A stretch of 64,000 nt of DNA, taken from positions 287,557 to 351,556 of the forward strand of contig MFAS01000001.1 of NCBI GenBank assembly GCA_001774685.1. The letters run 5' to 3'. Below are positions 42,576-56,486 of this stretch, in pieces (positions within the stretch are counted from its first letter, which is position 1; the number at the start of each line of letters is the position of its first letter). This stretch comes from Candidatus Collierbacteria bacterium RIFOXYD2_FULL_45_13 (GTDB lineage: Bacteria; Patescibacteriota; Microgenomatia; UBA1400; MFAQ01). Made by a program: the position numbers and the translations under genes. Below the pieces are notes generated by a model. The model did no database searches and was not told the origin of the DNA. It worked only from the letters and a program-made list of their open reading frames with translations.

Positions 42576-43160
42576 ATGAAAATTTGTGGTTTAGACGAGT
42601 GTGGTCGAGGCGCTTTTGCCGGCCCTCTCGTGGCCGCCGCCGTCATAATAAATTGTGATCTGGAATCTATTCCGGCCCTCCTTCCCGTTCCTCTTCGGGA
42701 CAGTAAAAAACTCACCGAAATCCAACGAAACAAAATTGTCGCCTCTTTGCCGAAACTACCAGTGATCTACAAAATCGCCGAGATCTCTGTTTCTGAAATA
42801 AATCAGTTTGGCATGGGCTGGGCCAACCGCCAGATTTTTGATAACCTTATCTCCGGAATCCAGGCTAATCTCTTTATTGTTGACGGAAATCTAAAGTTTA
42901 CCAATCCTGCCGTCAGAACGCTGATCAAGGGAGACGATAAATGCTACCAGGTAATGCTGGCGAGTATTATCGCCAAAGTCTATCGTGATAATCTCATGTC
43001 CAAACTTCACCAGGACTTTCCGGAATATGGCTGGGATAGAAACTCCGGCTACGGCACTGCCGAACATATCCAAGCTATCAAGCAATTTGGCCAAAACCTC
43101 CACCATCGATCCCAGTATATTGCTAGCTGTTTATCTCGGCAGTGGCCGAGGGGGGTATAA
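42576..43160 (+). CDS. rnhB: ribonuclease HII
   Basis: ICGLDECGRGAFAGPLVAAAV N-terminal DEDD motif context, typical RNase HII. Confidence 0.9.
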   Translation: MKICGLDECGRGAFAGPLVAAAVIINCDLESIPALLPVPLRDSKKLTEIQRNKIVASLPKLPVIYKIAEISVSEINQFGMGWANRQIFDNLISGIQANLFIVDGNLKFTNPAVRTLIKGDDKCYQVMLASIIAKVYRDNLMSKLHQDFPEYGWDRNSGYGTAEHIQAIKQFGQNLHHRSQYIASCLSRQWPRGV

Positions 43161-44152
43161 TCGCTATTATGAAATCAGAAATCGAGCGTAGTCTTCCTGT
43201 TATACCCGAGTCGGATATTTATCGTGAAGATGGTCGCAAGTCTCTTACGGAACTCTGGGAGACTTATCTAACCTTGATCGATAAAGGATGGATTGGAGAA
43301 ATAATCGCCAGCCAGGAGATTACTCTACCGGATGGTTCTATGGCAGAACTTCCGATATTTGCCTTTAGGACTCCATTGCCGGCAGGTAAATCGGAGGAGG
43401 CTCTGTGGGTGTTGGGAGGCGTTCACGGAGAGGAGCCAGCCGGCCCAAATGCCTTTTCTCAAAAAATTGACTCTATCGATCATCTAAGGGAGTTTGGTAT
43501 ACCAGTCGTTTTTATTCCACTTATGAACCCTGCCGGTTACTTTAGGGATTGGCGTTACGAGGATGAACGGAGGGACTTCACCAAAGGTCATAGCGTCAGT
43601 GACTCTGAACACATGTTATTGGCCGAAAACAGTCGGCCTCGCACTGATCACCCCGCCAGCAAAACTGCCGATCAGATTACTTCTTGGATTGAAAGGTCGG
43701 TTTCCGCTTATTACCCCAAACTAGTTATAGATCATCATGAAGACAGAGTTCCGGAAAAATTTCCGGAAGGTGACCCGCGCAATATCACCTCCTGTTACGT
43801 TTACGCGTCTGGTCAAGGATCTCACACAGCCGACATTGCTCAGGCAGTAAACCGGTTATTTATCGAATCTGGACTTCCCGTTATCGATCAAGGCACCACA
43901 CGCTTTGGAGAGCAAATAATCTCTGGAGTTGTGGCCAACGCTGCCGACGGGTCGATCGACGAATTTCTTAGTTCGGCAAAATATTTTTCGCGATCCGAGA
44001 ATAGGATCAAGGATAAATTCCCCGCTTCAACTTCTATTGTCGTCGAGACGACCATTCCGTTTGATGGCTCGATTCCTCTGATCGATAGGGTACGTGCACA
44101 TGGAAAGATAGTCGATTCTTATTTACCGTTTTGGCAACTGGTTAAGAGTTGA
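43142..44152 (+). CDS. succinylglutamate desuccinylase/aspartoacylase (AstE/AspA, M14-like) family zinc hydrolase, putative
   Basis: GGVHGEEPAG and NPAG motifs (GGxHGNE..NPxG pattern of the family). Start is uncertain: GTG at 43142 overlaps rnhB, and an alternative ATG lies at 43168. Confidence 0.5.
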   Translation: MAEGGIIAIMKSEIERSLPVIPESDIYREDGRKSLTELWETYLTLIDKGWIGEIIASQEITLPDGSMAELPIFAFRTPLPAGKSEEALWVLGGVHGEEPAGPNAFSQKIDSIDHLREFGIPVVFIPLMNPAGYFRDWRYEDERRDFTKGHSVSDSEHMLLAENSRPRTDHPASKTADQITSWIERSVSAYYPKLVIDHHEDRVPEKFPEGDPRNITSCYVYASGQGSHTADIAQAVNRLFIESGLPVIDQGTTRFGEQIISGVVANAADGSIDEFLSSAKYFSRSENRIKDKFPASTSIVVETTIPFDGSIPLIDRVRAHGKIVDSYLPFWQLVKS

Positions 44153-44198: not shown

Positions 44199-47100
44199 AT
44201 GGGAAAAATAAAAACCTTCTTAGGTTCTTTGCGTCCTTGGCAACTTTTTGGTATTCTGTTTGCATCGGTCGGACTGCTCGTCTCTGTCATTCTCGCTTCG
44301 CAGTATCTTCAGCGCTCCGCCAAGCTCAAGCTCGGTTCGACTTCCGGACTTTTGCTCACAGCAGATAGACAAGACTCTCTGGGGACTTTCCAAGACTCCA
44401 CCTTTACCTTAAAGTCCGATCAGGACCTTACGGTTGCCAGTCTGAAGAACAGCGTTATTTTTTTCCCTGAAATAGATTTCGATATTCGTGAGGTCAATCC
44501 CCGCCAGTTTAGTATTTCCCCCAAAACACTTCTGAAGAACAACAGTCTGTATCGCATCAAAATCCTTGCCGAACAGAAGACCTTTTCCTGGGCCTTCCAG
44601 ACCAAAAACGATTTTCGCGTGATTCAGACACTTCCTCGTGACCAAGCAAACTATGTACCTCTTAATTCTGGGATCGAGATTACCTTCAGTCATGACAACT
44701 GGGCCGATATTGGTTTGAAAGAAGGAAATTTTGAAATCACTCCGGCCGTCGATGGCCGTTTTGAACGCCACAAGCGCACCCTGTCTTTCGTCTCCAAAGG
44801 TCTCACACCTGGCACGCTTTACACTATTAAGATTAAAAAAGGTCTAAAACTAAACGGCACTACCGAAACACTCAAAGAGGACTTTGTTTTCCGTTTTGAG
44901 ACTCAACCTTCTAATGTTGGACAGACACTCGGGTTTGCCCGAAACTTTTACGAATTTTCACCTTCGGAAACACCAGCCTTCGATATTTACACCTCTGCTT
45001 CCGGTGGTGGGGATCTTTCTGTTCAAGTTTATCAGTATTCCGGTTTTTCGGGCTTTAATTCAGACTTCAACACTCTCCTATCCATTCCCTCTTGGGCCTA
45101 CAACTCACTTCATTCCAAGCGATTACCGGTCACTAGTCTTACGAAAGTTCTAGACTTCCACACCCCCATCCATCAGCAGACATACACCAACTTCTTCTTA
45201 TTTCCTCAAACTTTACCTAAAGGGTATTATTTGGTCGAATCAAACTTAGGTAGCGTTTCCACCCAGGCCCTAGTTCAAATTACCGATATATCAGCTTATC
45301 TTAGCTCAAGCGGGACCAAAACTCTGGTTTGGGTCAATGATATCGAGTCCAAAAAACCGATTTCCGGTGCCAAGATAAATTTCGGAGGAAAGGTACAGGA
45401 AACCGGATCCGAAGGAGTCGCTTATTTTGATACTCCCCAGTCGCAGATAGACGAACCATCGGCCATCACAGTTAGTTACGGCGACAGCCATCTGCTTCTG
45501 CCTCCGAAAAACTCTGGCAATTACTACTACTCAAAATACCAGCAAACCAGACGAGTGTTAGACAAATACTGGAGTTATTTCTACACCGACCGGCCGGTTT
45601 ATCTTCCTATCGATAGCGTCAAATTTTGGGGACTGCTTCGGGACCGAGATAATCTTAGTCAAAAACAAAAGTTCACCTTAGAAGTCACCCGGTCGGATTA
45701 CACCGGTTGGGATTTCAACCCCATCATCCTGTTTACCAAAGATTTTGAAACCAGCGATCTGGGCACTTTCACTGGTGAAGTCCCTTTGTCGGGTTTTAAC
45801 CCCGGCTGGTATGGAATCGCCCTCAAGATGGGGGACTCTGTGGTCATGAGCTCTTCTTTCACTGTGGCCACTTACACCAAGCCGGCTTACCGCCTCACCC
45901 TCCAATCCTCCAAGAAGGCCGCTATCATCGGAGAGACCATCTCTTTCACCGGACAAGCCACTTTTTTTGAAGGTTCACCGGTACCTGGGATGAACCTAAA
46001 ATACACCAGTCGTGACACCAAAGGCTCTGTAACGACCGATTCGTTGGGTAGATTCAGTTTTAGTCAAGTCGCTTCGATGAGGCCAAGCTTCGTTAACTAT
46101 TCTCCTGAATATACCTACCTTTTCCTTCGACCATCGCAAATGGAAGAGGGCGACATCCAGGCTGACGTGTCGGTAGCGGTTTTCAACTCTTCTTTAGCCT
46201 TCAATTCCATGAAATCGGAATCAAAGGGAAACATCGGTCGGGTGGAGTTGGATCTGCGGCAGGTAGACACTTCAAGGTTTGTCCCCTATACCTCGTTGGA
46301 CAATTTTACCCCTGCTCCGGGCCGGACTGTTACCGGCACTCTTATGGAGAACCAGTGGAACCGTCGTGAGGTCGGTACCTATTACGACTTTATCAATAAA
46401 GTCACCTCCCCAAGATATGAATACGACCGTATCCAAAACAAAATCGCCGATATTAGTTTAACTACCGATACCAACGGTAAAGCCGTCTATGAATTTCCGG
46501 TCGCGGAAGGCAAATCTTACAATGTTATTTTTCGCGCTTCGGATGATCAAAGCAGGACAACCACCCAAGATATTTACGTTTCCGGATCTGCCGATAATTA
46601 TCCTCGAAACAACTATGTCTTCCTAAAATCGGACAAATCAGGTTTCAACGATCCTTTCGCCATCGGTGAGCCGGTTAACCTTACTGTCATGCGGGGAGAA
46701 TCCCCCATGTCCTCCACCGATTCTGACAAATTCCTGTATCTGTTTGCCCAGAGAGGCATCAAGTCTTTCCAGATCTCAGATGATTCAAATATCAGTTTCA
46801 AGTTCTCTGATGCCTTCATTCCCAACATCTCGGTTCGGGCTATTAGATTTACCGGTAAAACCTACGAAGTTTCCGAAGGATTAAATCTGATGTTCGATAG
46901 TTCAGCCAAGAAACTCTCTCTGGACGTTACCATGGATAAATCTTCCTATCTCCCGGGAAGCACTGCCAGGCTTTCTGTTCTTTCCAAAGATTCACACGGT
47001 TCTCCGGTGCCGGCCGAGGTCAATTTATCTTTCCTCGACGAAGCCTACAACGCCATAAACCCCGTTACAGTGGATCCTCTTGCCAGAATTTTCAGTTCCC

Positions 47101-49415
47101 TAGATCCGGACATTATTGTTTCTTATCAGTCTCATCAATATCCCCTTGACGCCTCGGGAGCCGAGGGTGGTGGTTGTTTCCTGCCGGGTACCACCATTCT
47201 CATGGGCAACGGACAGGTGAAAAATATTGAAGATGTTGTCGTTGGCGATACGATCAAAACGCTCCAAAGTCCATCTTCGACCAAAACAGTCAGCGCCAAG
47301 GTTGTCAGAGTATTTCAGCATCAAGTATTCGGGTATCTCATCATCAATGATCGGCTAAGAGTTACCGCCGAGCACAACCTCTACATCAACGGCCGCTTTA
47401 TGACGGCAGGAGAAGTCAAGACGGGTGATTTTTATCTTGACTCACACGGAAATTATCAGAAAATTTATTCCATCGAATCTCGATCGGGTATACACACTGT
47501 CTATAACTTTACCGTCGACAAACTTAGCACTTACATCGCCGACGGTTTTTATGTTCACAACGAAAAAGGCCGCGAACTTTTTGTCGACAATGCCTATTTT
47601 GGCAGCGTCCGCACCGGCAGTGATGGACAAGCCAGTCTGGAAGTCAAGCTTCCGGACAATCTTACTTCATGGAGGATCACTTCGCAGGGAGTAACTGGAG
47701 ATCTAAAAGCAGGCGCAAGCTCTAACCTTTTGGTAGTCAAACAACCCTTTTTTGTCGATGCGGTTATGAATACTGAGTACTTAGTGGGGGAGCGGCCTGA
47801 GATCTCAGTCCGCGCTTATGGAGAAGGTCTGTCGGCGGGAGATCGGGTCGCCTTTCGGATTCAATCACCCACTCTGGGTATAGACAAAAATGTAAATGCT
47901 CAAGCCTTCGAAAACATCCGGGTAGATCTGGGGGCCCTAAAAGAAGGATCACACAGTCTCACTATATCCGGTAGCTCTGGTAGCCATGCAGACAAATTAA
48001 TCAGAAAGATTTCTGTGCTTAAATCACGTCTCAAAATGGTCAAAGCCACCGGTATCACTTTATCCGAGGACACCAAGCCGGAAGGTTCTACCGATTCTCC
48101 CACCACCTTGATTTTTTCCGACAAAAGTCTAGGCCGTTTCTTTCCTCCTCTGTCTAATTTGGCCTACACCTGGGGAGACCGTTTGGATCAGCGCTTGGCC
48201 CGGACACTTTCCGGAGAAATTATCAAAAGAACTTTCGATGAGACCATCACTCCGGAAAAACTAGACTTGGCACCTTACCAAACTCCGGATGGCGGTTTTG
48301 CCCTCTTCCCCTACTCCGGGTCGGACTTGGAGCTCTCTGCCTTTGTCGCCGCACTTGCCCAAAGTAAGATTGACTTCGTCGGTTTAGGTAACTATTTTTA
48401 CCGTGAACTAGCTAAAGCCAAAGATGTCGACACCGCTTCCACGTCTCTTTTTGGTCTGGCTAGTTTGGACGAGCCGGCTCTCTTACTCATCGATAATCTC
48501 TCCGTAGCCAAGAATCTTACCTCGTTGTCTCGGATATTTTTGGGATTGGCTCAGGCTAAAATCGGGGATACCGAGAAAGCCCGGCTCACCTATCAAGCTC
48601 TACTTTCAGATTTTTCTGTCAAACAAGACAACTTTACGTATATAAAGATTGGTTCGGATAAAGATAGTCAGCTTCAGGCCACCGCCCTCATGGCTGCCCT
48701 CGCTTCAATGCTGGGAGAACCGGAAACAGATAGTCTCCTGGGTTACACCCTCGCCAACAACGGCAAAGACATCCTTATGGTTTCCTCACAGCTGCTCACT
48801 ATTTCTCACCAAATTCAAAACATCAAACCACAGCCCGTTTCTTTTGCCTATACTCTGAATGGGAAAAAAGAGGCCAAGACTCTTGTAAAGGGTCAAGTCT
48901 TTAAGCTGGAGTTATCACCCAAAGAACTTTCTCAGATATCTTTTAGCGATCTGAAGGGCGATATTGGTCTGAGTTCGACCTTTACAACAGTTCTTGATCC
49001 GAAGATAGCTAATGTCAGTCAATCTGTAAAATTGGGTAGAACTTATTCTGTTCGTGGAGCTATCACCAATACTTTTTCTAGCGCCGATCTGGTTCGGGTT
49101 TCTTTGCCGGTTACATATGCAGCTATTACTCAAGATGGCTGTTACCAAGTCTCAGATCTGCTCCCCTCTGGCTTAAGACCCATCACTTCCGTTTATAGTT
49201 TCGGGCTTGATACCGGCAATGTCTGGTACCCGTACGAAATCAATGGGCAAAAGATTAGTTTCTGCATTGGCAAGGAAAACAAAAGCGATACCATCAACTA
49301 CTACGCCCGGGTCATCTCATCCGGAGACTTCCGTGCCGAAAGTGCTTTGATTCAATCGTTAATTTCGCCATCGGTTTTCAATCTCTCTCCCTCTGGGTCC
49401 GTAAGCGTCAAATGA
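44199..49415 (+). CDS. alpha-2-macroglobulin-like large envelope protein (1738 aa, N-terminal TM anchor, apparently no CxEQ thioester) with an inserted Hint/BIL domain
   Basis: N-terminal signal-anchor. LPDNLTSWRITSQ (A2M-family PDxxTxW motif). YQTPDGGFALFPYSGSDLELSAFVAALA (TED-domain-like QxxDGxF...LTAxVL pattern). No CLEQ/CGEQ thioester seen. Internal 129-aa Hint domain. Confidence 0.55.
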   Translation: MGKIKTFLGSLRPWQLFGILFASVGLLVSVILASQYLQRSAKLKLGSTSGLLLTADRQDSLGTFQDSTFTLKSDQDLTVASLKNSVIFFPEIDFDIREVNPRQFSISPKTLLKNNSLYRIKILAEQKTFSWAFQTKNDFRVIQTLPRDQANYVPLNSGIEITFSHDNWADIGLKEGNFEITPAVDGRFERHKRTLSFVSKGLTPGTLYTIKIKKGLKLNGTTETLKEDFVFRFETQPSNVGQTLGFARNFYEFSPSETPAFDIYTSASGGGDLSVQVYQYSGFSGFNSDFNTLLSIPSWAYNSLHSKRLPVTSLTKVLDFHTPIHQQTYTNFFLFPQTLPKGYYLVESNLGSVSTQALVQITDISAYLSSSGTKTLVWVNDIESKKPISGAKINFGGKVQETGSEGVAYFDTPQSQIDEPSAITVSYGDSHLLLPPKNSGNYYYSKYQQTRRVLDKYWSYFYTDRPVYLPIDSVKFWGLLRDRDNLSQKQKFTLEVTRSDYTGWDFNPIILFTKDFETSDLGTFTGEVPLSGFNPGWYGIALKMGDSVVMSSSFTVATYTKPAYRLTLQSSKKAAIIGETISFTGQATFFEGSPVPGMNLKYTSRDTKGSVTTDSLGRFSFSQVASMRPSFVNYSPEYTYLFLRPSQMEEGDIQADVSVAVFNSSLAFNSMKSESKGNIGRVELDLRQVDTSRFVPYTSLDNFTPAPGRTVTGTLMENQWNRREVGTYYDFINKVTSPRYEYDRIQNKIADISLTTDTNGKAVYEFPVAEGKSYNVIFRASDDQSRTTTQDIYVSGSADNYPRNNYVFLKSDKSGFNDPFAIGEPVNLTVMRGESPMSSTDSDKFLYLFAQRGIKSFQISDDSNISFKFSDAFIPNISVRAIRFTGKTYEVSEGLNLMFDSSAKKLSLDVTMDKSSYLPGSTARLSVLSKDSHGSPVPAEVNLSFLDEAYNAINPVTVDPLARIFSSLDPDIIVSYQSHQYPLDASGAEGGGCFLPGTTILMGNGQVKNIEDVVVGDTIKTLQSPSSTKTVSAKVVRVFQHQVFGYLIINDRLRVTAEHNLYINGRFMTAGEVKTGDFYLDSHGNYQKIYSIESRSGIHTVYNFTVDKLSTYIADGFYVHNEKGRELFVDNAYFGSVRTGSDGQASLEVKLPDNLTSWRITSQGVTGDLKAGASSNLLVVKQPFFVDAVMNTEYLVGERPEISVRAYGEGLSAGDRVAFRIQSPTLGIDKNVNAQAFENIRVDLGALKEGSHSLTISGSSGSHADKLIRKISVLKSRLKMVKATGITLSEDTKPEGSTDSPTTLIFSDKSLGRFFPPLSNLAYTWGDRLDQRLARTLSGEIIKRTFDETITPEKLDLAPYQTPDGGFALFPYSGSDLELSAFVAALAQSKIDFVGLGNYFYRELAKAKDVDTASTSLFGLASLDEPALLLIDNLSVAKNLTSLSRIFLGLAQAKIGDTEKARLTYQALLSDFSVKQDNFTYIKIGSDKDSQLQATALMAALASMLGEPETDSLLGYTLANNGKDILMVSSQLLTISHQIQNIKPQPVSFAYTLNGKKEAKTLVKGQVFKLELSPKELSQISFSDLKGDIGLSSTFTTVLDPKIANVSQSVKLGRTYSVRGAITNTFSSADLVRVSLPVTYAAITQDGCYQVSDLLPSGLRPITSVYSFGLDTGNVWYPYEINGQKISFCIGKENKSDTINYYARVISSGDFRAESALIQSLISPSVFNLSPSGSVSVK
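47175..47561 (+). other. Hint (intein-like/BIL) domain embedded in the large protein: CFLPGTTILMGNG...TAEHNLY...VYNFTVD...YIADGFYVHN, followed by Glu (non-canonical +1)
   Basis: Block A starts with Cys. Block B TAEHNLY (TxxH). Blocks F/G end in HN. 129 aa with no endonuclease domain. The +1 residue is E rather than C/S/T. Confidence 0.7.
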
Positions 49416-51097
49416 AAACCGGGTGGGGATCAATTTCCTTCACACTTGTTCTTCTTTGTGTATTATTGGCCGTCTATTTTTCCGACCGTCAACCCAAGAA
49501 TCCAATATCACAATCACCAACATTTTCTACTGAGTTTGCCTATGACAATCGGACTTTTCTCCCCGCGGTTTTTCAAAACCCGTCTCCTCCCAAAGGCTCG
49601 GCTCCTTCCGTCATGGTTATTCCTCATCATCTAACCGCTTCAAATCTTATCGCCGGAGGCATCTCCTTACTTACCGCCGACCCGCCGGGGACAATTATTA
49701 TTTTGTCACCGAATCACGCCGACACCGGTCAATGCGATATTGTTTCATCATCAAATAGTTGGGACACCCCATACGGGCAGGTCCCTGTGGACCAAAAGTT
49801 ACTTGATTTATTTGTCAGATACGGCACTGTCTGTTTGGACAATCTGGCCATTGTGCCCGAACATGGTCTTGCCGGACTAATGCCTTTTCTTGCGTATTAC
49901 CTGCCAAATACCCAAGTTGTTCCTTTTGCTCTCAAGAAGAACCTCGATCCGGCTTTGCTCGATAGTTTTATCAGACAACTGATTACTGTCTCACCAGCCA
50001 CCGCCATTATTGCTTCTATTGATTTCTCCCACGGCCTAACTCACGACCAAGCCAAGCAGAGTGACACTCAAACTGAAAATTATATATACAACCACAACTA
50101 TCCGGCCATCGAAAAGTTATCATCGGAGTATCTCGACTCTCCGGCCTCCCTGATATCAGCTCTGAAGATTATTAGTGCGAGATCTCTTTCCCCCGAGGTT
50201 CTGGTCCACACCGATTCGTTCGCCTTTAATCAAATTCCCGACTCGGTCACATCATATTTCTTAATCACCGGTGTCAGTTCTGTATCACCTTCAGACCCCA
50301 TCACCATCCTCTTCGGTGGTGACGTTATGCTTGGTCGGTCAGTCGATACCCGGATCGCCAAAAACCACGATCCTGCTTGGCCATTTAAGAACATCTCCGG
50401 CATCCTAAGTGATGCCGATTTAACCTTCGTAAACTTAGAATCACCCTTTGGTTCTGAGTGTAACTCTACCGACACAGGTATGGTTTTTTGCGCCAATCCA
50501 GCTTCCGTCAAAGGCTTAGTTGATTCAGGCGTAGACTTGGTTGGTCTCGCCAACAACCATATCGATAATCAAGGCAAAAACGGTTTCGACCTCACCGTTT
50601 CCATTCTTAACCAAAACGGTATTGCCCCCGTTGGATTAGGGCAACCGGTATTCAAATCCGTCAAGAACAGCAAGATCGCTTTTCTAGCCTTCAATGATAT
50701 ACCTCCCAATTTTTCGGAGGTTTCTATGGCTTCACCGAATAATATTTCCGGTCAAATAGCCATCGCCAGATCGTCGGCAGATATTGTCATCGCCTCTTTC
50801 CACTGGGGCAATGAATATAGCCATCGGTCACTTCATCAGGAGGAGCTCGCTCATATGGCTATTGATTCTGGTGCTGACGTTGTCATCGGTCACCATCCTC
50901 ACTGGGTTCAGGAAATAGAAACTTACAAGGGAAAACCTGTTTACTACTCCTTGGGAAACTTGGTTTTCGATCAAATGTGGTCGGAAGAAACCAGAAATGG
51001 CTTAGTCGTTAAGCTAACTTTCTCAGGTAATACCCTGGTCAGTCAAGAACAGGTTCCTATCAAGATCGTCGATTATGGTCAGCCCGTTCCCTTATAA
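49412..51097 (+). CDS. fusion protein: N-terminal TM, Memo-like (AmmeMemoRadiSam system protein B-like) domain, C-terminal CapA/PgsA-like metallophosphatase domain
   Basis: C-half: LFGGDVMLGR...ANNHIDNQG...HWGNEY...GHHPHWVQ (CapA/PGA_cap family). N-half: VIPHHLTAS..SPNHAD..FSHGL (Memo-like His ligands; weaker). ATGA overlap with the upstream giant gene. Confidence 0.55.
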   Translation: MKTGWGSISFTLVLLCVLLAVYFSDRQPKNPISQSPTFSTEFAYDNRTFLPAVFQNPSPPKGSAPSVMVIPHHLTASNLIAGGISLLTADPPGTIIILSPNHADTGQCDIVSSSNSWDTPYGQVPVDQKLLDLFVRYGTVCLDNLAIVPEHGLAGLMPFLAYYLPNTQVVPFALKKNLDPALLDSFIRQLITVSPATAIIASIDFSHGLTHDQAKQSDTQTENYIYNHNYPAIEKLSSEYLDSPASLISALKIISARSLSPEVLVHTDSFAFNQIPDSVTSYFLITGVSSVSPSDPITILFGGDVMLGRSVDTRIAKNHDPAWPFKNISGILSDADLTFVNLESPFGSECNSTDTGMVFCANPASVKGLVDSGVDLVGLANNHIDNQGKNGFDLTVSILNQNGIAPVGLGQPVFKSVKNSKIAFLAFNDIPPNFSEVSMASPNNISGQIAIARSSADIVIASFHWGNEYSHRSLHQEELAHMAIDSGADVVIGHHPHWVQEIETYKGKPVYYSLGNLVFDQMWSEETRNGLVVKLTFSGNTLVSQEQVPIKIVDYGQPVPL

Positions 51098-52101: not shown

Positions 52102-53250
52102 ATGAAATATTTCAACCGGCTATCAGCCATTCTCCTTTCTGCTTTGTTATTTTCTTTCACCCTCATCTTTCCGGCGCACGCCGTCTACCTGAACTCCGGC
52201 AATCAGCTGGATCTTCCTAAAGATAAAAAAATAAACGAAACCGCCATCATCGCCGCCGGTACTTTAAACATAGACACCGAAATCAACGGTGACCTCTTCT
52301 GTGCAGGCAGAGATATTGTCGTCAATGGAGATATCAAAGGCGATGTGCTTTGTGCAGGGCAGTCCGTCAAAATAAATGGACGAGTCGATGGCAATGTTCG
52401 TATTGCAGCTCAGTTTATCGAGATAAATGGTCAGGTCGGCCGGAATATCACTACTGCCTCTCAAGGCTTGATAGTTTCTAAGTTTGCTTCAATTAAAGGC
52501 GATATTTTCTTTGGGGTCCAAAGTGCTGACCTCAGAGGTACCTTGGGTCGAGACCTGCTCGGTGCCGCCGACCAGCTGACTATTTCCGGGACCCTTATCA
52601 GAAATGCCAAGGTGGCAGCCAGCAAGATATCTTTGGTCGATCCTGCCAAAATTGGCGGGGACTTCGAGTATTACATGGAAAATATTGGAACAGCCTCGGT
52701 CAATCAGCAAAATGTCAAAGGAAGTATCTTAAAACACGAAATTGTCAGAAAGGAAGTCTCCCAAAAAGAAGTAAAGGGTGTCACTATTGCTGCCAAGCTG
52801 ATGGCCCGGCTATTCTGGCTTGTTTCAACTCTATTGTTGGGCTTTACCCTAATCTATTTTCTCAGATCGAGGGTCACTCAGCGCAGTCAGCTAATCACCC
52901 GGAAGCCATTCATCACCGGCTTCGTTGGTTTAGCTGTCCTTATTCTTTCCCCAATCGTCGCGATTCTTCTTTTAATCAGCGTAATTGGAGCCCCCTTGGC
53001 TATCGTCGTTATTCTCGAATACATGTTGTCGCTCATTCTGGCCTCTATTTATCCCACGATTCTCCTCGGTGAATGGGTTATTAAACTGCTTACCAAAAAG
53101 AAGTCTGGCGGTCTGGGCTGGTCGTTATTCGCCGGAGCAGTCACCGTAGGGCTCCTGTTCTTTGTTCCCCTCATCGGCTCCATCGTGGCCTTCATTTTAC
53201 TGTGTTCAGGTTTAGGGTCTATCTTTCTTTCTTACCTTCCAGAGAAATAA
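52102..53250 (+). CDS. membrane protein with signal peptide, bactofilin-like beta-helical repeat region (DUF583-like) and C-terminal multi-TM segment
   Basis: Repeats of INGDL/VNGDIKGDV/INGRVDGNV type (GD-x-x-G/N periodicity). N-terminal signal, 3-4 C-terminal TM helices. Confidence 0.4.
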   Translation: MKYFNRLSAILLSALLFSFTLIFPAHAVYLNSGNQLDLPKDKKINETAIIAAGTLNIDTEINGDLFCAGRDIVVNGDIKGDVLCAGQSVKINGRVDGNVRIAAQFIEINGQVGRNITTASQGLIVSKFASIKGDIFFGVQSADLRGTLGRDLLGAADQLTISGTLIRNAKVAASKISLVDPAKIGGDFEYYMENIGTASVNQQNVKGSILKHEIVRKEVSQKEVKGVTIAAKLMARLFWLVSTLLLGFTLIYFLRSRVTQRSQLITRKPFITGFVGLAVLILSPIVAILLLISVIGAPLAIVVILEYMLSLILASIYPTILLGEWVIKLLTKKKSGGLGWSLFAGAVTVGLLFFVPLIGSIVAFILLCSGLGSIFLSYLPEK

Positions 53251-55424: not shown

Positions 55425-56486
55425 ATGCCAAAGAAAGCCAAGAAAACTAAAGAAGAAAAGTCAGTAGCCAAGCCCGCAGACAACACCGCTCGTCTTACCG
55501 CCGTCAAAATTGCCATGCAGCAAATCACCAAACAGTTTGGTGAAGGGGCGATTATGCATATGGGTTCCGACCGTGTCGATGAAAAGATACCCGTAATCTC
55601 CACCGGTTCGATTAGTTTGGATTTAGCTTTGGGTGTGGGTGGTTTCCCCAAAGGCAGAATTATTGAGATTTATGGTCCGGAAGCCTCAGGTAAGACCACT
55701 TTGGCTCTCCATGTCATTTCAGAAGCCCAAAAAACCGGCGGTATAGCCGCCTTTATCGATGCCGAGCATGCTGTGGACCCCAGCCGTGCGAAATCTATCG
55801 GAGTCGATCTGGATAGTCTTCTTTTATCTCAGCCGGACAACGGTGAGCAAGCTCTGGAGATCGCCGAGACTCTTATCCGTTCCGGCGGTGTGGATGTCGT
55901 AGTCATTGATTCTGTCGCCGCCCTGGTTCCCAAGTCAGAGATCGAGGGCGAAATGGGTGACTCTTCTATGGGGCTTCAGGCGAGACTCATGAGTCAAGCT
56001 TTGCGCAAGATTACCGGTGCTATTTCCAAGAGCAAGTGTATCGTTATCTTTACCAATCAGCTCCGCGAGAAAATTGGTGTGATGTTTGGGAATCCCGAAG
56101 TCACTACTGGTGGTAAAGCTCTCAAGTTCTATGCTTCCATTCGTATCGACATGCGCAAAATTGGGAATATCCAGGAGGGCGATGAAATCATCGGTTCCCG
56201 TCACCGTGCCAAAGTGGTGAAGAACAAAGTTGCTTCACCTTTTAGGACTGCTGAGTTCGATGTTCTCAATGTCGGAGGTATTAGTAAACTAGGCGACCTC
56301 ATCGATACCGCCATCGCCTATAACGTCCTGGAGAAAGCCGGCTCATTTATCAAATATGAAGGGGAGACTCTGGCCCAAGGGCGTGAATCGGCCAAAGCCG
56401 CTTTAGCCGAGCGTCCTCAAGTCATCGAAAAGATTAAGCAGCAAGTCATGGAAAAGGTCAATGCCGGAATCCAGCCGGAAAAGTGA
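55425..56486 (+). CDS. recA: recombinase RecA
   Basis: [12 protein letters not shown] (Walker A), L1/L2 loop context. 353 aa. Confidence 0.95.

Follow-up and report, generated by a model that had tools for sequence, protein, structure and literature searches.

The 64,000-nucleotide (nt) stretch of DNA analyzed here, referred to as the window, comes from the genome of Candidatus Collierbacteria bacterium RIFOXYD2_FULL_45_13 (GenBank assembly GCA_001774685.1, contig MFAS01000001.1, positions 287,557 to 351,556). At positions 44199..49415 it carries a gene for a 1,738-amino-acid (aa) alpha-2-macroglobulin (A2M)-like protein into which a Hint domain is inserted; this gene and all window features given below with coordinates lie on the plus strand. 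The protein is a membrane-anchored, thioester-less bacterial A2M homologue, extracytoplasmic and typical of Patescibacteria. Its insert is a type-A bacterial intein-like (BIL)/PT-HINT domain and occupies the bait/anaphylatoxin position of the macroglobulin scaffold, within a disordered Gly-rich loop. Most likely, the Hint excises itself from this loop after export.

Both building blocks are known; their combination at the bait/anaphylatoxin site was not found in the literature searched, where none of the matches listed, whether for macroglobulins together with Hint/intein-like domains or for Hint/intein elements in the Candidate Phyla Radiation (CPR), described a Hint-in-A2M architecture. CPR genome papers mention A2M genes only as a putative defense against host proteases (PMC8080830). 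The natural role of BIL domains has been unclear since their description in 2003, their usual hosts being variable, poorly defined proteins. Here a type-A BIL lies at a fixed, structurally interpretable site in a Patescibacteria-wide protein, with natural Hint-less orthologues as controls, and whether a BIL cuts, splices, or conjugates natively becomes directly testable. The case is also relevant to the working and the processing of thioester-less bacterial macroglobulins.

A mini-Hint domain in a macroglobulin-like protein

Profile searches, alignment, and AlphaFold2 (AF2) modeling place the Hint at aa 993 to 1121 (47175..47561), confirming the complete mini-Hint that an earlier note, made from the bare sequence, had delimited at these positions. 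At 129 aa the domain leaves no room for an endonuclease. Its catalytic set comprises Cys993 (nt 47175), Thr1056 and His1059 in block B, and the terminal His1120-Asn1121 (ending at nt 47561), and position 4 of block F is Asn instead of Asp. The Pfam PT-HINT model matches aa 1008 to 1121 (E 1.5e-10, exceeding the gathering score), and the NCBIfam intein_Cterm model also scores above its cut-off. By Hint sequence the closest solved structure is 2LWY, a type-A BIL from C. thermocellum (E 3e-8), while with the family profile as query the top solved structure is that of the Tetrahymena BUBL BIL2 domain (6Y75/6TMM; E 4e-18). The residue that follows His-Asn (position +1) is Glu1122, as the earlier note had read it, and is thus non-nucleophilic.

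The catalytic residues, i.e., Cys1, the block-B Thr and His, and the terminal His-Asn, are invariant in 64/64 Hint-bearing homologues, including proteins that share as little as 31% identity with the query. At the genome loci, Cys1 and the terminal His-Asn were scored and are present in 79/79. Hint length is similarly constrained (128 to 130 aa in the 64 homologues; 128 to 131 aa overall when the genome loci are included). The +1 residue is Asp in 28, Glu in 22, and Gln in 9 of the 64 homologues, with single instances of Ile, Asn, Thr, Lys, and Ala. Among the 79 loci it is Glu in 34, Asp in 30, Gln in 6, Ala in 5, Ser in 2, and Asn in 1 (the one left was mis-scored owing to an internal His-Asn), hence Glu/Asp/Gln in 70/79 and acidic or amide in 71/79. 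The -1 residue is Gly at 78/79 loci, and an (x)EKGG motif follows His-Asn in almost all of them. A Lys at +2 or +3 is near-universal in the presence of the Hint and is missing at the same site in Hint-less proteins.

These properties identify the domain as a type-A BIL/PT-HINT. Like the 2LWY domain, it is about 130 aa long with Cys1, a block-B TxxH, and a terminal His-Asn, and has neither a +1 Cys/Ser/Thr nor an endonuclease; type-A BILs moreover sit in secreted or surface proteins, as this one does. Described BILs, however, are found in hypervariable regions of non-conserved proteins or ahead of polymorphic toxin domains (PMC7765530), whereas the domain studied here occupies a fixed site in the loop of a conserved family, is vertically inherited across a whole radiation, and is not part of a toxin/immunity module. 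A polymorphic-toxin pretoxin Hint was thus ruled out, since an A2M body, not a toxin, lies C-terminal of the domain. Class-1 mini-inteins share with it the fold, Cys1, TxxH, the terminal His-Asn, insertion into a conserved motif, and the existence of clean intein-less alleles; they differ in that the +1 residue is rarely nucleophilic here (Ser at 2/79 loci), the host protein is extracytoplasmic, and no remnant of a homing endonuclease is present. A canonical intein was ruled out by the +1 Glu, the missing endonuclease, and vertical inheritance.

The Hint is inserted between two recognizable macroglobulin domains, the bait-region domain A2M_BRD (aa 819 to 950, 46653..47048; Pfam E 3e-7), which aligns with the end of the C5 beta chain, and the Pfam A2M domain PF00207 (aa 1134 to 1204, 47598..47810), which aligns with human A2M residues 728 to 801. 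The profile segment that starts at the last residue of the Hint aligns with these same residues of human A2M, whose bait region we take to be residues 690 to 728 in UniProt numbering. In C5, the beta chain (395 to 610) aligns N-terminal of the Hint and the alpha chain (107 to 267, beyond C5a) C-terminal of it. AF2 models were built in two parts, aa 800 to 1738 (predicted local distance difference test [pLDDT] 89.7) and aa 1 to 800 (pLDDT 87.2). In the former, confidence is low only in the first three residues and in the two Hint linkers, at aa 976 to 990 and 1123 to 1130. The N-terminal flank of the loop (aa 976 to 992, 47124..47174; ...QSHQYPLDASGAEGGG) is accordingly disordered (pLDDT <50) and ends in a conserved GAEGGG with Gly992 at -1. 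The C-terminal flank (aa 1122 to 1130, 47562..47588) reads EKGRELFVD and holds the +1 Glu, the conserved +2 Lys, and an R-x-x-F-x-D motif (R1125 to D1130). It is this motif, the equivalent of the post-bait/post-anaphylatoxin segment, that directly follows the Hint; the PDxxTxW motif that the earlier note had put immediately after the domain is indeed present as LPDNLTSW, but at aa 1151 to 1158, 30 residues past it.

Alignment with Hint-less relatives (from Dehalococcoidia, Clostridia, Bacillota, and a few CPR lineages) defined the insertion point. Their loop, with a median of 17 residues, carries the conserved motif G-A-E-x-G-G-[D/E]-G-G-x-R-x-D-F. In Hint-bearing proteins the loop without the Hint also has a median of 17 residues, the arrangement being G-A-E-x-G-G, then the Hint, then [D/E]-K-G-(G)-R-x-x-F-x-D. 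The interquartile ranges are similarly narrow (16 to 20 aa with the Hint versus 17 to 20 aa without). The insert hence falls exactly between the GG and the conserved acidic residue and, since this acidic residue also occurs in the Hint-less relatives, the non-nucleophilic +1 belongs to the host loop. Profile, structure, and comparative data thus all bear out the bait-equivalent location that had been proposed. What does not carry over is the character of a bait: the loop is a conserved Gly-rich motif and not a hypervariable multi-protease target, so that "bait" describes position only. As a side observation, the A-E-(K/R/G)-G-G loop motif (47148-47174 and 47562-47573 in the window, and in Hint-less loops) is superficially reminiscent of the Ala-Glu-Lys stem peptide of peptidoglycan and its glycine bridge, and Gly-Gly bonds are what M23 lysostaphin-type peptidases cleave; the likeness may be coincidence.

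The A2M homology of the remainder of the protein is supported by Pfam, by the family profile, and by Foldseek. Matches to MG2, A2M_BRD, and A2M, like that to PT-HINT, were above their cut-offs, and those to bMG3 and bMG6 were weak. A profile built from 38 family members retrieved ECAM/YfhM (E 1e-16), TEP1, Salmonella A2M, human A2M, C4, and C5 from the Protein Data Bank. AF2 predicts a transmembrane (TM) helix, an all-beta array of macroglobulin (MG) and Ig-like domains, a well-folded Hint, and a helical domain similar to the thioester-containing domain (TED) between beta domains. For both halves the top Foldseek matches were native ECAM (5A42; E 8e-35) and Salmonella A2M (4U48). Against the ECAM fragment from MG7 to the C terminus (4ZIU), Foldseek gave a target-normalized TM score (TMt) of 0.65 with a root mean square deviation of 6.0, and the model is closer to native than to activated ECAM (query-normalized TM score [TMq], 0.48 versus 0.28 to 0.29).

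The N-terminal membrane anchor that the earlier note had posited is borne out as a TM helix/signal anchor at aa 13 to 38 (44235..44312; AF2 helix and hydropathy scan), preceded by a cytoplasmic tail of only about 12 aa. A Big_5 Ig-like domain follows at aa 138 to 235 (44610..44903; Pfam E 1.3e-9, all-beta in AF2) as the first domain of the extracytoplasmic beta-domain array, with the MG2 domain at aa 460 to 530 (45576..45788; PF01835, profile match to ECAM and TEP1). C-terminal of the Hint and PF00207 lie the helical TED-like domain (aa ~1309 to 1541, 48123..48821; AF2 helices, Foldseek match to 4ZIU) and a beta domain equivalent to MG8/bMG10 (aa ~1610 to 1737, 49026..49409; AF2 and Foldseek).

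There are just three cysteines in the whole protein, Cys993 of the Hint and Cys1648 and Cys1689, both within the C-terminal beta domain; none is in a CxEQ context, and a CxEQ thioester is thus excluded, as had been noted. The site is not simply absent, however, but degenerate: homologue alignment shows G-D-R-L-D-Q at aa 1326 to 1331 (48174..48191) in place of G-C-x-E-Q, and this degenerate form is conserved across the family. A search for CxEQ in 120 homologues, Hint-bearing and Hint-less, returned none (0/120). C5 and MagD are likewise accepted superfamily members without a CxEQ thioester.

With the known bacterial A2Ms, of type I (ECAM/YfhM, Salmonella A2M) and type II (Pseudomonas MagD), the protein shares the MG array, the bait-region domain, the CUB-TED portion, and a C-terminal MG domain, and with MagD also the absence of the thioester. 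It differs from type I in lacking a lipobox, a thioester, and a pbpC neighbor, its N terminus being a TM helix without Cys, and from type II in lacking a six-gene magABCDEF/yfaSTQPA-type operon; neither pbpC nor mag-like genes were found near the window gene. It thus fits neither of the described bacterial A2M classes. Further differences from both are the extra N-terminal Big_5 domain, the Memo-like (and often extracytoplasmic function [ECF] sigma) partners described below, the short conserved Gly-rich loop, and the Hint itself. In the A2M superfamily, cleavage of the bait by a protease sets off a conformational change and trapping; that the Hint is functionally tied to such a trap is, as in the earlier note, an inference.

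Inheritance and loss of the Hint

Relatives of the A2M-like protein were found in more than 571 species genomes. The Hint is carried by 64/120 best homologues and by 78/80 best genome loci. Almost all of these 80 loci belong to Patescibacteria (Collier-, Magasanik-, Uhr-, Peregrini-, Falkow-, Kerfeld-, Gracili-, Doudna-, Moran-, and Saccharibacteria), WOR-1 also being represented, and conservation of the architecture extends throughout the CPR. The window is 86% identical to a Collierbacteria metagenome-assembled genome (MAG). Many third-party annotation (TPA) MAGs in which this typical CPR gene lies in CPR-type synteny bear the title "uncultured Pseudomonadales" or "Gammaproteobacteria," and one is called "Nanoarchaeia archaeon" (loci L004, L006, L009, L010, L012, L014, L022, L023, and others); these titles are probably taxonomic mislabels, or the contigs mis-binned.

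The Hint co-diverges with its host under equal purifying selection. Pairwise identities of the Hint and of the host protein are correlated (Pearson 0.85), the ratios of nonsynonymous to synonymous substitution (dN/dS) against the closest relative are 0.083 within the Hint and 0.092 elsewhere in the gene, and the Hint is the more conserved part of the protein (48% versus 37% outside it). Neither GC content nor skew is anomalous over the insert, and a recent foreign origin was rejected on this ground.

In a neighbor-joining tree of the Hint-masked alignment, three Hint-less proteins are nested within the Hint-bearing CPR clade, each as sister to a Hint-bearing protein, and these orthologues lack exactly the Hint. 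In one of them (P0022), synteny between the ribosomal-protein/rpoA block and recA matches that of the window. The genes P0029 and P0033, the latter Hint-less, are collinear with 80.8% DNA identity, the 387 nt of the Hint being absent in frame while loop length is identical; the junction codons read A|IK versus GGG. Poly-Gly is found at the junction in all three nested Hint-less forms. Clean loss of the Hint, with nothing else changed, has thus occurred at least three times.

Such a pattern raises the question of whether the insert could be a passenger, that is, either a fixed intein-like relic that excises without benefit to the host and persists solely because the protein would not survive an imprecise deletion, or an unreactive folded spacer or binding module. 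The insertion site within a conserved host motif is intein-like, close orthologues are polymorphic for presence and absence, and purifying selection equal to that on the host is what an "addictive" element would show. A non-reactive passenger, however, would leave the invariance of the catalytic residues unexplained. For a benefit-free one, retention in many CPR classes with no homing endonuclease, together with conservation above that of the host, suggests more than tolerance. We therefore regard a passenger of either kind as improbable.

Proposed excision and possible fates of the loop

From the Hint chemistry described in reviews (PMC4031507 and PMC7765530), self-excision would proceed as follows. 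After export and folding, Cys993 would attack the carbonyl of Gly992 in an N-S acyl shift assisted by Thr1056 and His1059, yielding a thioester. Asn1121 would then cyclize with the assistance of His1120, the Asn1121-Glu1122 bond would be broken, and the Hint would leave the loop. Glu at +1 precludes a branched ester intermediate. The alpha-amine of Glu1122, or the epsilon-amine of the conserved Lys1123, could attack the Gly992 thioester and religate the loop, which would restore a loop of about 17 residues equivalent to that of the Hint-less orthologues. We infer from the sequence both that this chemistry takes place and what its end product is, and religation is the outcome that we tentatively prefer.

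Precedents exist for both amines. In type-A BILs, aminolysis can join the flanks even where +1 is not a nucleophile (PMC4031507), so that the earlier note, correct about the BIL type, was too strong in saying that these domains autocleave rather than splice. Tetrahymena BIL2 forms a Lys isopeptide via the epsilon-amine (PMC8616854). The N-extein of BIL2 ends in Gly-Gly, as does the N-terminal flank here, and the Lys ligation catalyzed there has a possible counterpart in the conserved +2/+3 Lys; BIL2, in contrast, is a cytoplasmic domain of a eukaryote with ubiquitin-like domains on its flanks, and the isopeptide chemistry is established for BIL2 and only conjectural for the protein studied here.

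Three features lead us to lean toward religation, namely the constrained loop length and distal GAE motif, the clean Hint-less orthologues, and the Lys beside the junction. The GAExGG and [D/E]xGG flanks common to Hint-bearing and Hint-less proteins were likewise counted in favor of a restored loop. Several points weigh against this interpretation. In the type-A BILs tested, cleavage products outweigh ligation (PMC4031507), and according to one review these domains are unable to ligate at all (PMC7765530). Conservation of the flanks and of loop length could serve Hint catalysis or the uncut precursor and not a religated product, and high conservation with vertical descent would also be expected of a functionless mini-intein-like element that needs clean excision. 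The junctions differ, being E/D-K in Hint-bearing proteins and G-G in the secondarily Hint-less ones, which means that a spliced product would not be identical to the Hint-less loop. Finally, autocatalytic cleavage itself, with or without ligation, is predicted from the invariant catalytic residues alone.

Given the published dominance of cleavage in type-A BILs, scission without religation is nearly as likely. Both junctions would then be cut and the mature protein would consist of two non-covalently joined chains, a membrane-anchored ~110-kDa MG1-MG6/BRD arm and a ~68-kDa MG7-CUB-TED-MG8 body. The product would be akin to furin-processed C3/C4/C5 or bait-cleaved A2M, with the Hint replacing the external protease for maturation or as a switch. 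Superfamily members are cut at this site for activation or maturation, and in human A2M the segment must be cut for the conformational switch. In complement C3/C4/C5 a folded anaphylatoxin at the same topological position is cleaved off; there, external convertases or furin remove a signaling helical bundle, whereas the insert described here would remove itself. Complement chains cut at the anaphylatoxin-side site remain associated. Thioester-less MagD is processed in vivo to ~100 kDa with loss of a ~65-kDa part, sizes that match the expected fragments; in MagD the site of the cut is unknown, and here the processing device would be built in. Invariance of both catalytic centers is in keeping with cleavage at both junctions as well.

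If the loop were severed, on the other hand, its length and the distal GAE should drift, yet they are constrained as in the Hint-less relatives. The poly-Gly at Hint-less junctions is a poor protease substrate, which suggests that an intact flexible loop is functional. The greater similarity of the AF2 model to native ECAM points the same way, though weakly, as the model represents the uncut precursor. In either case, religated or cut, the Hint would be a built-in, protease-independent processing step at the usual processing/trigger site of the superfamily.

A different use of the same chemistry would be for the Gly992~Cys993 thioester to act as a warhead, resolved in trans by a foreign amine or hydroxyl group on a protease, a host-cell surface protein, or the peptidoglycan/envelope, to which the N-terminal membrane-anchored arm would become covalently coupled. 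The Hint-made thioester would thereby stand in for the lost TED thioester, in the manner of Hedgehog with cholesterol or BIL2 with substrate lysines. Consistent with such a role, the TED thioester has been lost while the thioester-forming Cys1, with an unhindered Gly at -1, is invariant; the N-extein terminates in Gly-Gly like the ubiquitin-like substrates of BIL2; and BIL2, which leads the solved matches to the family profile, couples its N-extein to lysine residues on other proteins. CPR bacteria live, in addition, as epibionts (PMC8080830) and would profit from covalent tethering or trapping. The Hint-less relatives, however, also lack the TED thioester, and the absence of CxEQ from all 120 homologues, with or without Hint, ruled out a complementary distribution of the two. 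The repeated clean loss of the Hint with no accompanying change also argues against this role, as does the invariance of the C-terminal His-Asn, which trans-conjugation does not need, and no acceptor is known. We consider the warhead unlikely; were it true, a Hedgehog/BIL2-like conjugation would have been recruited into a protease-trap scaffold for CPR defense or host attachment.

Gene neighborhood and other Hint-bearing proteins

Overlapping the A2M-like gene by 4 nt, a downstream gene (49412..51097) encodes a membrane-anchored fusion of a Memo-like (AmmeMemoRadiSam B-like) domain with PGA_cap/CapA. Over the 84 loci for which neighborhoods were counted, a membrane-anchored Memo-like gene lies directly downstream on the same strand in 59, in 21 of which, including the window, it is fused to PGA_cap/CapA. 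The Memo-like neighbor also occurs in Hint-less Firmicute-type and Dehalococcoidia relatives, so that it is the Memo part that accompanies A2M-like genes as a conserved partner in the CPR and in both of these groups. In the window product, the CapA part shows weak similarity to the lasso-peptide epimerase MslH.

An ECF sigma(-70) gene lies directly upstream of the A2M-like gene in 32/84 loci (e.g., L002:7451-8020 and L003:7420-7998); the window copy has no sigma neighbor. The sigma-linked A2M-like proteins have a cytoplasmic tail of about 35 to 114 aa before the TM helix. This arrangement suggests that in sigma-linked lineages the macroglobulin ectodomain is the sensor of an anti-sigma-like factor. 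A Pfam scan of these long tails detected no known anti-sigma domain, and the anti-sigma reading hence draws on genomic context only. Together, the A2M-like and Memo-like genes, with or without ECF sigma, define a conserved surface module of ultrasmall epibiotic bacteria, a group in which surface proteins have been proposed as mediators of host interaction and defense. A PADLOC search of the gene and its neighbors gave no anti-phage defense match, and assignment to an anti-phage defense family was rejected.

The other neighbors of the A2M-like gene in the window are RNase HII and an unassigned gene. The 336-aa protein encoded directly upstream (43142-44152, +) has only a weak match to the catalytic domain of succinylglutamate desuccinylase/aspartoacylase, a zinc hydrolase. 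Its homologue is found beside the A2M-like gene only in the closest relative (L004), so that it apparently does not belong to the conserved module. Downstream of the module are a bactofilin-domain gene (52102-53250, +) and recA (55425-56486, +), as is also the case in two other Collierbacteria loci (L001 and L086). With the ribosomal-protein/rpoA block upstream, this indicates a stable chromosomal setting that is not island-like.

An earlier homologue search with the Hint only had returned four short PT-HINT proteins and no more. An exhaustive search of representative proteins with the Hint alone yielded 1254 proteins at E <= 1e-10, in which the single-copy matches at 43 to 60% identity are members of the A2M family. 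Other top matches have 2 to 10 tandem PT-HINT copies per protein (P0125, P0127, P0128, P0129, P0131, and P0141), some of these multi-PT-HINT proteins also carrying Tim44-like, Big_9/cadherin-like, or MopE-like domains. These multi-Hint polyproteins look like an uncharacterized class.

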